A stretch of DNA of 64,000 nt from assembly GCA_963816185.1 (NCBI GenBank), contig CAWFJJ010000006.1, positions 1,326 through 65,325 of the forward strand, in the 5' to 3' direction. The position numbers and the translations under genes are program-made. Every line of letters begins with the position of its first letter. The first letter of the stretch is position 1. Source of the stretch: Thermoanaerobaculia bacterium. Lineage in GTDB: Bacteria > Acidobacteriota > Thermoanaerobaculia > UBA5066. The notes under the pieces were generated by a model that searched no databases, was not told the DNA's origin, and saw only the letters and a program-made list of their open reading frames with translations. Below, piece by piece: positions 49,184-63,595 of this stretch.

Positions 49184-49355
49184 GCCCCGGGGATTGACTT
49201 TTGCCGCGCCCAGCACCACGTTGAGACGAAGACGATGTTGAGGCGTTGACCTGCCGGGCCCTTCGTGGCCACCCATGCCCGTCAGCGAGCCACTAGTGAA
49301 ACCGGCAACGTCTCGTTGCCGGTTCTTGCTTTCTCCGACGGTTTGAGGGGGCCCT
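49184..49355 (+). repeat. ~170-bp repeat, copy A (copy B at 63427..63595, ~90% identity); ends in an intrinsic terminator
   Basis: GCCCCGGGGATTGACTTTTGCCG..GTTGAGGCGTTGACCTGCCGGGCCCTTCGTGG.CACC.A.GCCCGTCAGCGAGCCACTAGTGAAACCGGCAACGTC..TGCTTTCTCCGACGG shared by both copies. Confidence 0.75.
49303..49336 (+). terminator. rho-independent terminator inside repeat A (CCGGCAACG-tct-CGTTGCCGG + TTCTTGCTTTCTCC)
   Basis: 9-bp perfect stem, 3-nt loop, T-rich tail. Confidence 0.55.
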
Positions 49356-49447
49356 CGTATCTCTCAACCCTCTCAAACTCCTGGCCACACAGCTTCTCGC
49401 CCTTCTCCATCTTCTGCTCGTGGGATTTCCCCCAAGGAGGTTTCTCG

Positions 49448-51634
49448 ATGAGTATAGGAATACTTCGATCCACCTTTCTGCTCGGTGTCGCGGCTCTGTT
49501 GACCGCGGCCGAGCTCGCAGCGGACCAGGCGGTCATCGTGCGGACGATGAAACCGTACGGCGCGGTCAAGCAGAAGATTGCCGCCCTCGGCGGGACCGTG
49601 ACATACGAGTTCAAGAATGCGAACGGTCTGGCGGTGAGCATTCCCGACAACAAGCTCGACGCGTTGAACCTGACCGACGGAGTCCTTTACACCGTGCGCG
49701 ATGAAACCGTGCCTGCCCCGAAGCCCAAGCTGATCGTCGACGTCACAGGCGACGTTCAGTCGGACCTGGGCTCGGATGCGGCACCGGCGAACTACTACCC
49801 CTACAACAGCGATCTGACCGATGCGCTGCCGCTGCAGACGGCGGGAATTCTCGGGCAGGGGGTCGTGGTCGGAGTCATCGACACGGGCACCTCTCGCTCG
49901 GCGACGGCTCTCTGCACGGGCGCCTGCGCGACGGGGACACGCGTCCTCGGCGGCGAGAGCTTCGTCCCGGGCGAGCCGGACGCCACGGCCCCCACAAACG
50001 GCGCTCACGGAACCTGGGTCGCCTGCATGATCGGCGCGAATCGCACGTTCGGGTTCGCCAGCACCAGCGCGCTCGCGATCGCTGTCCGCACGTACTGCAC
50101 ACCGGCGGCTTCCTCCCCCTGCTCGTTCACGGCGGCTCCGGGTGTCGATGGGATCCCGATGGTCGGCCAGGCTCCCGCAGTGCAATTCTTTGCCCTGAAG
50201 GTCTTCCCGGCGTCGGGAGCCGGAGCGCCGACCAGCCGCATCATGGCGGCCATGGATCGCGCGATCGATCTGAAGAACTCCACCCAGCCGAATATGAAGG
50301 TCGTCAACATGAGCCTGGGCGGGCCGACGCTTCTTGCGGGCGGAGACATCGAAGATGAGCTCGCGACTTCCATGGCCAACTCAGGCATCACCCTCGCCGT
50401 CTCGGCAGGCAACGCGGGGCCGAGCGGCATGACGGTCGGAAGCCCCGGTACGGCGCACGGCATCCTGACGGTGGGCGCGGCCTCGAGCCCCGTCCATGAG
50501 CGCATCCTGCGAGACCTACAGTACGGGGCCGGCGTCGGGCCGCTCTATCGCCCGGACAACAACCAGCAGATGGCCTACTTCAGCTCGCGCGGCCCCGACG
50601 CGGATGGCCGCATCGATCCGGAGGTCGTCGCCAACGGCTTCGCCTCCTACGCCCAGGGCGCCGACGGCTCGATCTCCCTGGTCTCCGGAACTTCCTTCTC
50701 CGCGCCGACCATCTCCGGCGTCGCGGCCCTCCTCTACAGCGCGAAGCCGTCGGCGACGCCGGCGCAAATCCGCTCCGCGATCGTCGGCTCGGCGCGTTCG
50801 ACAGTCATTCCGACCGCGACCGCTGTCGATCAGGGCCACGGCTACGTCGACGCGGCTGCTGCGGAGACGCTTCTGAATACGAATCCCGGCCCGATCGCCG
50901 ACACCGGTCCCGCAAAGAAGAAGGTGACGCAGAATGTCCAGGAGGGCGCCGGCATTCAGCCGATCAACAGCTCCTCGTTCACCACGCACGTTGCCGATCT
51001 GCGGCCCGCGGAGCGCCGCGAGTACTACTACGTCGTCAGCAAGAACACGGCCCAAGTCCGCGTTACCCTCTCCAACGTGACGCCGGCGCTCCCGGCCTCA
51101 CAGCAGAACGCGTTGTTCGGCGACGACCTCCTCTTTGCCGTCCACTCCGCCAAGACCTCGGCGATCGGCGAAGGGGACTACCTCGCCTTCGATTTCGTCA
51201 ACGGCGCGAGATCCTTCGTTTTCGACCGGCCGGAAAACGGCGTCATGCGCGTCACCGTCAACGGAGACTGGACCAACGCCGGGAAGATCGCGACCGACCT
51301 CGCGATCGAGGAAGTCACGGCGCCCCGCTCCAAGAAAGACTTCAAGGGGAAGATCTCGCAGGGCGAGCTCGTCACGCAGACAGTCGACATCCCGGCGGGA
51401 ACCGCGTCCGTCACGTTCAGCCTCTCCTGGGACAACGACTGGAGCAGCTACCCAACCAACGATCTCGATCTGTACCTCGTGTCTCCCGGCGGCGTCCTGA
51501 ACACCAGCGGTGCGACGTTGAACAGCCCGGAAGTCGTCACGATCACGAACCCGCTGCCGGGCACCTGGACGATCTTCGCCGACGGGTTCACGATCTTCGG
51601 CAAGGATGACAAGTACGAAATCCGGATCGACTAA
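49448..51634 (+). CDS. S8-family subtilisin-like serine peptidase, secreted, with C-terminal pre-peptidase / beta-sandwich domains
   Basis: RBS AAGGAGG then ATG 49448; signal peptide; catalytic triad contexts VIDTG (Asp), HGTWVA (His), GTSFSAP (Ser). Confidence 0.85.
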   Translation: MSIGILRSTFLLGVAALLTAAELAADQAVIVRTMKPYGAVKQKIAALGGTVTYEFKNANGLAVSIPDNKLDALNLTDGVLYTVRDETVPAPKPKLIVDVTGDVQSDLGSDAAPANYYPYNSDLTDALPLQTAGILGQGVVVGVIDTGTSRSATALCTGACATGTRVLGGESFVPGEPDATAPTNGAHGTWVACMIGANRTFGFASTSALAIAVRTYCTPAASSPCSFTAAPGVDGIPMVGQAPAVQFFALKVFPASGAGAPTSRIMAAMDRAIDLKNSTQPNMKVVNMSLGGPTLLAGGDIEDELATSMANSGITLAVSAGNAGPSGMTVGSPGTAHGILTVGAASSPVHERILRDLQYGAGVGPLYRPDNNQQMAYFSSRGPDADGRIDPEVVANGFASYAQGADGSISLVSGTSFSAPTISGVAALLYSAKPSATPAQIRSAIVGSARSTVIPTATAVDQGHGYVDAAAAETLLNTNPGPIADTGPAKKKVTQNVQEGAGIQPINSSSFTTHVADLRPAERREYYYVVSKNTAQVRVTLSNVTPALPASQQNALFGDDLLFAVHSAKTSAIGEGDYLAFDFVNGARSFVFDRPENGVMRVTVNGDWTNAGKIATDLAIEEVTAPRSKKDFKGKISQGELVTQTVDIPAGTASVTFSLSWDNDWSSYPTNDLDLYLVSPGGVLNTSGATLNSPEVVTITNPLPGTWTIFADGFTIFGKDDKYEIRID

Positions 51635-51948
51635 TTTCTGGCTTCACTGATATCGAGAGGCCGCCCGAGAGGGCGGCCTCTCTTTCTAGGCTCCTCGCGC
51701 TTGGCCCGAAGGGTTGCCTCCTGAGATGTCCGTCGCTTTCACCTGCCGCTAGCCTGAACATGGCCCGAGAAAGCGCGCCGGCGACGAAAACGCGGCGGCT
51801 TTCCCAGAATCCCACGCGGAAAGTGAACCGCTCGTGATCTCCGACACTCTCGCTGCGTTCAATGTGGTGAGACGCTGGGAAGCGTCCGCCATTTCGGGCG
51901 GACACGCGTCGCGGCCGCCCCTTGCGACGCATTGAGAGGAGCAACTCG

Positions 51949-62791: not shown

Positions 62792-62963
62792 CGGACGACC
62801 GGGTTACGTGCAGGCAGTATACAGACGCGTCAACCAGTCTCAACCGCAGGCGGGCTGGGCGAGGTCTACGGGGCGAATAACACGAAGATCGAACGCGGCG
62901 CTGCTACTCGTGTGTAATAGTTGACGTCTGGGGTTCAGAAGTAATTGGGCCTGAGGTGGAACG

Positions 62964-63368
62964 ATGAACAAGAGCGCAGATCGCTACACCATTAGTTTGC
63001 TTGGGCCATTTGGTCCAGCGAGGCTCGTGGGCAGTTTCTCCGGCACGTCCGGGATCTTCCCCACCCACCACATTCAAAAGGTCGCCGGCATAAACAAGGC
63101 GGGTGACGTCACGTTGAAGCGCGGAGTGGTCGATTCTTCGTGCTTGTGGAATTGGATTTCGCAAGTCAGGCAGTCGGGAGGCGCGAGCGAACACGACGTC
63201 ATTATCACGCGGCTGGTTACCGCCAACCGCCCGATCCAGGCGTGGAGGCTGCGCAACGCCAAGCCGACGAAGTACACAGGTCCGCCGCTGGGTGGAAAGA
63301 GTGGCAAGGTAGCTATGGAGGAACTCGTTCTGTCCGCAGAAGCGATCGAGATCGTGCCTCCGGGCTGA
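62964..63368 (+). CDS. phage tail tube-like protein (T4 gp19 / TIGR02241-like family), solitary
   Basis: 134 aa; DVTLKRGVVDSSCLWNWI and GKSGKVAMEELVLSAEAIEI match the recalled family pattern (nitLkRGv..d..lw.W; ..ievael.l..E.iel). Confidence 0.5.
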   Translation: MNKSADRYTISLLGPFGPARLVGSFSGTSGIFPTHHIQKVAGINKAGDVTLKRGVVDSSCLWNWISQVRQSGGASEHDVIITRLVTANRPIQAWRLRNAKPTKYTGPPLGGKSGKVAMEELVLSAEAIEIVPPG

Positions 63369-63426
63369 AGCCGGAGATCGGCGACGCTCGTCCGCATCTC
63401 GAGGGCTTCGCGGCGCTGGGGGCTGG

Positions 63427-63595
63427 CCCCGGGGATTGACTTTTGCCGTGTCCGGCACCACGTTGAGACAAAGACGATGTTGAGGCGTTGACCTGCCGGG
63501 CCCTTCGTGGACACCTACGCCCGTCAGCGAGCCACTAGTGAAACCGGCAACGTCGCGATACCGGTTTTTTGCTTTCTCCGACGGCTTCGAGGGTA
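63427..63595 (+). repeat. ~170-bp repeat, copy B (see copy A at 49184..49355)
   Basis: Direct repeat; same orientation. Confidence 0.75.
63542..63576 (+). terminator. rho-independent terminator inside repeat B (AACCGG-caacgtcgcgata-CCGGTT + TTTTGCTTTCTCC)
   Basis: 6-bp stem plus U-tract; different hairpin sequence from copy A at the same position. Confidence 0.5.

Follow-up and report, generated by a model that had tools for sequence, protein, structure and literature searches.

The cyclic di-GMP (c-di-GMP) class II riboswitch (RF01786; Lee et al. 2010; structure PDB 3Q3Z, as cited in PMC7583470) has been reported to turn expression on when its ligand is bound, with a Kd of 0.2-2 nM (PMC7583470), and 'variant' riboswitch families have been defined by changed nucleotides near the binding pocket (PMC7266159). 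The window considered here, the whole 64-kb stretch of contig CAWFJJ010000006.1 (assembly GCA_963816185.1) that was analysed, contains two forward-strand copies of a direct repeat, copy A at 49185-49352 and copy B at 63427-63594, each composed of a promoter, a riboswitch, a terminator and a 3′ block. We hold with good confidence that these repeats are c-di-GMP-II-type riboswitch cassettes with a terminator-type ON platform, duplicated in this lineage and probably responding to c-di-GMP. Their aptamers were assigned to RF03169 (c-di-GMP-II-GAG), a family that reportedly comes from the variant-riboswitch survey of Weinberg et al. (2017, PNAS). With the canonical family RF01786 the repeats share the P1-P2-P3 helices and the pseudoknot between a loop and the 3′ tail, the position in the 5′ untranslated region, the bulged AA, the UGG loop context, the conserved GAGGC, UGA, GAGCCA and ACCG blocks, the predicted ON-type control, and the association with secreted or surface proteins and proteases. 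They differ from RF01786 in that the conserved C of GUGCAACC is an A here and its partner is C or A, not U, in their assignment to RF03169, and in their host, which the labels of homologues suggest is probably an acidobacterium. When compared to RF03169, the best-scoring family, the middle A of the subtype triple is common to both (GAGACC against GAAACC), whereas the consensus G of GAGACC is an A here, and GAG members carry a CGG loop and are mostly from Actinomycetota. Transcriptional riboswitch platforms of the general terminator/anti-terminator type likewise have the 3′ strand of P1 in common with the 5′ arm of the terminator, and in this respect there is no essential difference; what is notable here is that the whole cassette was copied, promoter included. 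The element is of a known type (c-di-GMP class II clan, terminator-type ON platform) in a less usual subtype, and it rises above the routine through its intermediate G-A-A signature, the duplication of the entire cassette, and the directional tuning of copy B.

Copies A and B are identical at 132 of 143 positions over 49185-49327 (92.3%), and the repeat finder listed them as family D8 (144 nt, 92% identity). An 18-mer from the 5′ end of the unit and a 19-mer from its core each occurred twice in the window, against 0.03 and 0.01 occurrences expected from shuffles; the repeat is not due to chance, and only two copies are present within the 64 kb. The sequence-only reading, which had placed the copies at 49184-49355 and 63427-63595, described them as same-strand, about 90% identical, starting alike with CCCCGGGGATTGACTTTTGCCG, and each followed by a Shine–Dalgarno (SD) sequence and a gene; all of these points were recovered, with only slight shifts of the bounds, and both genes lie on the strand of the copies.

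The whole window was scanned with Rfam at curated thresholds (40 bits for RF03169), and exactly two matches were obtained, one per copy, both to the RF03169 aptamer: 49230-49316 in copy A with 49.0 bits and 63472-63558 in copy B with 49.8 bits, each covering model positions 1-86 of 86. These full-length matches above the gathering score place both copies in the c-di-GMP-II clan (Rfam CL00127), and a permissive scan of the repeat region returned no other credible family and none competing. Together with the promoter and terminator described below, they bear out the proposal of the sequence-only reading that the repeats form a cis-regulatory leader family with its own TTGAC-containing promoter. 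In aptamer A (49230-49316), the pairs mapped from the cmscan alignment and the sequence comprise P1 (49234-49240/49306-49312, 7 bp), P2 (49242-49244/49289-49291, GGC with GCC, 3 bp), P3 (49251-49258/49278-49285, seven of eight pairs with one C·U mismatch), and a pseudoknot in which the loop GGCCAC (49267-49272) meets GUG (49296-49298) and CC (49302-49303) while AAA (49299-49301) is bulged. Aptamer B (63472-63558) has a P1 one pair longer, the loop GGACAC, and the same G-A-A triple, so that the window copies have P1 of 7-8 bp, P2 of 3 bp, P3 with 7/8 pairs, and five pseudoknot pairs. Both aptamers occupy a leader position on the strand of the gene that follows, their 3′ ends lying 132 nt (S8 peptidase) and 118 nt (CsbD) from the start codon and overlapping the terminator.

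Relatives of the aptamer were gathered by two pattern scans, one of genomes (120 loci, mostly from Actinomycetota and Chloroflexota, with a few Acidobacteriota and one Gemmatimonadota) and one of metagenomes (49 loci from the window's own sub-lineage). Pairs were counted in 165 unique aptamers anchored on invariant blocks. P3 was canonical in 92%, with four to six pair types per position, a value that fell to 44% when the partner was shifted by one, and the four inner P1 pairs were canonical in 82-98%, with G-C, U-A, A-U, and C-G all seen. One pseudoknot pair was A-U in 113 aptamers and G-C in 35, and another took the forms C-G, U-A, U-G, and G-C. Covariation of this kind supports a class II c-di-GMP riboswitch architecture independently of the Rfam score.

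A putative sigma-70-type promoter precedes aptamer A (49194-49222, + strand), composed of a −35 hexamer TTGACT (49194-49199), a 17-nt spacer, and a −10-like CACGTT (49217-49222), with a predicted start near 49229. Putative promoter B (63436-63464, + strand; TTGACT at 63436-63441, CACGTT at 63459-63464) repeats both hexamers and their spacing with three substitutions in the spacer. A start about 7 nt past the −10 element would place the 5′ end of the transcript about 5 nt before P1. The two hexamers are kept in copy B and in L143, one of the two metagenome contigs that are the window's closest relatives; in the other, L155, the −10 reads CACCTT, and the spacer is variable. A member from Gemmatimonadaceae (L043) carries a textbook TTGACA-N16-TATCGT at the same position. 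On the strength of this conservation, the promoter of the cassette is likely to be genuine.

Regarding the expression platform, the 3′ part of aptamer A runs into an intrinsic terminator (49300-49334, + strand) with an 11-bp stem AACCGGCAACG/CGTTGCCGGTT, a TCT loop, and the tail CTTGCTTTCT, with a folding energy of −17.9 kcal/mol. Its 5′ arm consists of the same bases as the pseudoknot CC and the 3′ strand of P1, and the aptamer and the terminator are mutually exclusive because the 3′ strands of the former double as the 5′ arm of the latter. This arrangement, in which a hairpin built with the ACCG strand precedes a T-rich tail, was found in 77 of 169 unique family members and across nearly the whole closest sub-lineage. 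According to the proposed mechanism, the promoter would fire about 5 nt upstream of the c-di-GMP-II-type aptamer, whose 3′ strands (pseudoknot ACC and P1 CAACGUC) would, when the ligand is absent, serve as the terminator arm and halt transcription about 105 nt in. The bound ligand, most likely c-di-GMP, would instead lock the pseudoknot and P1, block the terminator, and allow read-through into the gene, which makes the cassette a predicted ON switch.

Both copies had been thought to end in a terminator, and this holds for copy A, with its strong intrinsic hairpin (49300-49324) and T-rich tail, but less so for copy B, where the stem is broken and the terminator scan made no call. The weakened terminator B (63540-63577, + strand) has an outer stem GAAACCGG/CCGGUUUU interrupted inside, followed by a U-rich tail, and reaches −8.9 kcal/mol. 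Compared to copy A, it carries three substitutions confined to the loop and the 3′ arm (GTCTCGTTGCC to GTCGCGATACC) and a longer T run, whereas the 5′ arm, being part of the aptamer, is the same in both copies. Through the T-to-G change P1 gains a C-G pair, and the aptamer helices evaluated on the Rfam-derived structure amount to −18.1 kcal/mol in copy B against −12.4 kcal/mol in copy A; two terminator pairs are lost through the T-to-A and G-to-A changes, which account for the loss of hairpin stability from −17.9 to −8.9 kcal/mol. The differences between the two hairpins are consequently not the compensatory-like changes that the sequence-only reading had seen in them, given that they weaken the terminator and lengthen P1. 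All three favour read-through, and copy B is therefore predicted to be leakier than copy A or to respond at a lower level of ligand; from the same energies, it could instead be decaying as a switch.

When considering the genes under control, copy A is followed by an S8 peptidase gene cassette (49421-51684, + strand) with an SD sequence AAGGAGG at 49434-49440 and an open reading frame (ORF) at 49448-51634 (Pfam Peptidase_S8, 2.8e-40) whose product has a signal-peptide-like N-terminus. The gene has a strong terminator hairpin of its own at 51656-51684, so copy A probably controls this gene alone, as a monocistronic unit for a secreted protease. Copy B is followed by a gene for a CsbD-like small stress protein (63676-63879, + strand; Pfam CsbD, 1.3e-13), which it would control with the weaker terminator and longer P1 described above. 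The first plausible ORF downstream of 123 family members was scanned against Pfam, and Peptidase_S8 (five, the window included) and SpaA (five) jointly ranked first, followed by SdrD_B (three), DUF11, VWA, and trypsin (two each), and M6 (one); most of the other ORFs had no Pfam match, and many had signal-peptide-like N-termini and sortase-type C-termini. Secreted or surface proteins dominate the first downstream position. In the window's sub-lineage, many members precede a gene for a secreted HExxH protein of about 245 aa, and in the two closest relatives, L143 and L155, the aptamer precedes a gene for a GYD-domain protein. The sequence-only reading had proposed to look for many copies upstream of unrelated genes, and the occurrence of related cassettes before GYD, protease, and many secreted-protein genes speaks for its leader option. 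An otherwise puzzling repeat gains a concrete function in this way: in an uncultured and poorly studied lineage, a nucleotide second messenger is predicted to switch on both a subtilisin-like secreted protease and a stress protein of the CsbD type.

The assignment to a subtype deserves separate consideration. The gathering score of RF01786 is 53.5 bits, and the score of the window under this model is masked by clan competition. In four relatives that are 89-91% identical to the window over the aptamer (L155, L125, L144, and L030), the best model is the canonical RF01786, with 54.7-57.7 bits, while RF03169 is the best model for L143, L148, L135, and the window copies. A comparison of the consensus lines indicated that most of the difference between the two models lies in the 14-nt strand joining P2′ to P1′, which reads AGUgGUGCAACCGg in the canonical family, AgUGGCGAGACCGa in the GAG variant, and ACUAGUGAAACCGG in the window. 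The positions behind the name 'GAG' were deduced from these two consensus lines (canonical G-C-A; variants G-A-G and G-C-G). In place of the RF01786 consensus GUGCAACC, in which the C belongs to the pseudoknot and the AA is bulged, the window has GUGAAACC with the AA kept, and the cmscan alignment shows no match at the consensus G of RF03169, so the strict G-A-G signature is absent as well. The middle A of the triple is variant-like, but its partner is U instead of G in most relatives, and it looks like one half of a covarying pseudoknot pair in these relatives rather than a change of the pocket; the window instead has a mismatch, with C as the partner in copy A and A in copy B. The A at the third position agrees with the canonical family and preserves the AA bulge, and the UGG loop context is also canonical-like, in contrast to the CGG of GAG members. 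The genome set contained 87 GAG and 42 GAA aptamers under a search pattern that fixed only the middle A. Judged by these positions, the window aptamers are members of the c-di-GMP-II clan that are neither strictly canonical nor strictly GAG; they sit between the two Rfam models, and a sizeable G-A-A subgroup is thereby flagged for its ligand preference.

Among possible ligands, c-di-GMP is the most likely for the window aptamers because the bulged adenines are kept, near-identical relatives pass the canonical threshold, a GGDEF-EAL gene is present in the window, and family members precede genes of the kind typically found in c-di-GMP regulons. The GGDEF-EAL gene (32479-35211, + strand; Pfam EAL 1.8e-77, GGDEF 3.2e-51) encodes a PAS-GAF-PAS-GGDEF-EAL protein, is located outside the repeat 14 kb upstream of copy A, and shows, by its predicted domains, that the organism makes and degrades c-di-GMP.

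Rare variants of the c-di-GMP-I riboswitch sense c-AMP-GMP, and by the same token the cassette and mechanism could be as described while the G-A-A subtype senses another cyclic or linear dinucleotide. The changed C beside the bulged adenines (GUGCAACC to GUGAAACC) would fit such a shift, as would the fact that the best Rfam placement is a 'variant' family of the kind defined by pocket changes (PMC7266159) and that the genome set contains a distinct group made up of 42 G-A-A members. However, the aptamers resemble the canonical family in their bulged AA and UGG loop context, most relatives combine the C-to-A change with a G-to-U change in the pseudoknot partner, near-identical relatives pass the higher threshold of the canonical model, and the gene associations are those of c-di-GMP regulons; we regard a different ligand as unlikely. 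An extension of this idea, in which the G-A-A aptamers (about one third of the collected family members) would constitute a third specificity class within the c-di-GMP-II fold, sensing a different dinucleotide and controlling secreted proteases and CsbD-type proteins in Acidobacteriota and Chloroflexota, strikes us as distinctly unlikely.

Several observations weigh against regarding the repeats as working c-di-GMP riboswitches. Near-identical relatives flip between RF01786 and RF03169 as the best model, and neither subtype nor ligand can be read from the match; the subtype triple itself (49298-49300 in copy A) reads G-A-A in both copies, which is neither the canonical GCA nor GAG. Two pseudoknot positions and one P3 pair are mismatched in the window aptamers. 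Minimum free energy folding of the two units was no better than that of shuffles (z = −1.5 and +0.2) and did not recover the aptamer, which is uninformative because the aptamer fold is pseudoknotted and such an outcome is expected. The consensus promoter scan called the promoter of neither copy, because CACGTT matches only the A and the final T of TATAAT. Finally, the terminator of copy B may be too weak to switch.

The comparison with relatives bears on the origin of the two copies. Copy A alone is preceded by a conserved flank (49076-49184, + strand) that shares 83% identity with the region preceding the single cassette of L143 and L155 and is absent from copy B; this non-coding segment of 110 nt gave no Rfam match and no covariation-supported fold. 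The two metagenome contigs each carry one cassette with the same promoter block before the GYD gene, and these cassettes are 85-87% identical to both A and B, compared to the 92.3% between A and B. In L143, the copy A flank, one riboswitch, GYD, and CsbD are contiguous, and the spacer between GYD and CsbD keeps a relic of the terminator 3′ arm and of the block downstream of this arm in A and B (TTGCCGGTTCTTG...CTTCGACG..CAGGGG). In L155, GYD is followed by sequence 96-97.5% identical to the window at 44.6-45.3 kb. Orthologues of the S8 gene in five relatives (L170-L174) have 92-93% nucleotide identity, are alignable only over 49421-51684, and have different neighbours and no riboswitch upstream. 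Likewise, the CsbD homologues are alignable only over 63660-63895, and no riboswitch was found upstream of those located elsewhere in the relatives examined, nor upstream of GYD homologues (78-89% identity) in the other relatives examined; a GYD gene was looked for in the window, and none was found.

Since A and B are closer to each other than to the cassettes of L143 and L155, and the other orthologues lack a riboswitch, the cassette appears to have been duplicated and redeployed in this lineage. The simplest reading is that the ancestral cassette stood before CsbD, with or without GYD, and that in the window lineage it was duplicated, the S8 cassette was placed behind the copy that kept the flank, and other genes accumulated between the copies. 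Duplication would thereby have placed under one signal two genes, neither of which is riboswitch-controlled in the other relatives examined. The locus would then offer a natural example of riboswitch regulon growth, in which a whole promoter-aptamer-terminator cassette is copied, single-gene cassettes are dropped behind it, and the copies are afterwards tuned differently by a few substitutions in the terminator and P1. Two identical or near-identical family aptamers lying within a few kb of each other before different genes were also observed in L076, L034, and L012; in L076, a metagenome-assembled genome from Thermoleophilia, they are at 1684-1750 and 4111-4177 with cores 100% identical. Cassette duplication seems, from these cases, to be recurrent in the aptamer family.

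The second option of the sequence-only reading was that the repeats bound a 14-kb segment, and they could accordingly be att-like or recombination boundaries of a horizontally acquired island whose regulatory appearance is incidental. The genes between the copies encode the S8 peptidase, a PKD-domain protein, a Ser/Thr kinase with PD40 repeats, a methyltransferase, and a kinase with an AAA_16 domain, together with a minus-strand lipoxygenase whose sequence is spread over two or more frames and a lone T4 gp19-like tail-tube gene. The frameshifted lipoxygenase and the phage-tail-tube-like gene agree with an island, as do the roughly 14 kb bracketed by direct repeats where L143 has a contiguous arrangement, and the S8 gene, which was clearly imported as a single-gene cassette. 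On the other hand, the window holds no transfer RNA gene, no integrase, transposase, or other recombinase was present among the window ORFs scanned against Pfam, and the GC content inside the segment (0.65-0.74) overlaps with that outside (0.61-0.71) without a step at either repeat; neither a recombinase, nor a tRNA/att site, nor a compositional step, nor presence or absence of the segment as a unit marks it as a genomic island. Both repeats are, moreover, intact riboswitches correctly placed before genes, the first gene of the 14-kb 'segment' is the one under the control of copy A, the interior is a mosaic in which S8, the only part that could be traced, has a separate history, and L155 shows yet another arrangement in a generally fluid region. 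An island boundary is therefore very unlikely, and the part of the second option that stands is a lineage-specific duplication or rearrangement that now brackets 14 kb relative to L143. The simplest reading is that the direct repeats are a by-product of regulatory duplication in a fluid region rather than the termini of a mobile island. In L143 and L155, sequences from 41-46 kb of the window are joined directly to the riboswitch-GYD unit, which indicates that the area is prone to rearrangement.

It is extremely improbable that the units are genes for a trans-acting small RNA family of about 100 nt with independently transcribed downstream genes, for although in the OFF state the promoter and terminator would yield a discrete RNA of about 105 nt, the known cis-acting aptamer and its expression platform fully explain the sequence, the promoter scan found no separate promoter between the terminator and either start codon, and every family member is followed by a gene in the same orientation; a free-standing trans-acting small RNA is not needed to explain the unit. 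An element of the repetitive extragenic palindrome (REP) or miniature inverted-repeat transposable element (MITE) type was ruled out, as there are no terminal inverted repeats and only two copies, both in leader position.

Within the segment, the lipoxygenase homology (60619-62791, − strand) is distributed over consecutive ORFs in different frames that match Pfam model positions 291-486 and 531-655, with a third ORF upstream that had no Pfam match; it represents either a pseudogene or an assembly frameshift. The T4 gp19-like tail-tube gene (62964-63368; Pfam 3.8e-20) is situated directly upstream of copy B without adjoining tail or sheath genes. Another direct repeat in the window, D11 (67 nt, 90% identity), is located at 41378-41444 and 46171-46237 and flanks S9 peptidase and amino-acid-kinase genes.

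The window is also rich in paralogous protease and kinase genes. These include two S9 prolyl-oligopeptidase paralogues at 2887-5133 (− strand) and 42290-44437 (+ strand) and two Ser/Thr kinases with PD40 repeats at 37732-40425 (− strand) and 52937-55663 (+ strand). At 32223-32369, a 21-bp tandem repeat of six to seven units occupies the 3′ end of a DUF3300 gene (31092-32519). The region 7082-21000 opens with a gene encoding an exporter with cyclic-nucleotide-binding and C39-peptidase domains (7082-10261) and one encoding a sigma-54 activator (11533-12435). Next comes a 70-nt coding repeat (...KKAVKDLDVKPAK...) present in 16 copies, and interspersed among these copies are three ORFs of about 410-490 aa (13127-14539, 16914-18383, and 19538-20779). 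The flanks of these ORFs carry the D1 and D6 repeats, and one of the three has TPR and Glyco_transf_41 domains. By its gene content, this region looks like a multi-precursor cluster for double-glycine-leader peptides, of the kind making ribosomally synthesized and post-translationally modified peptides or glycocin-like products.

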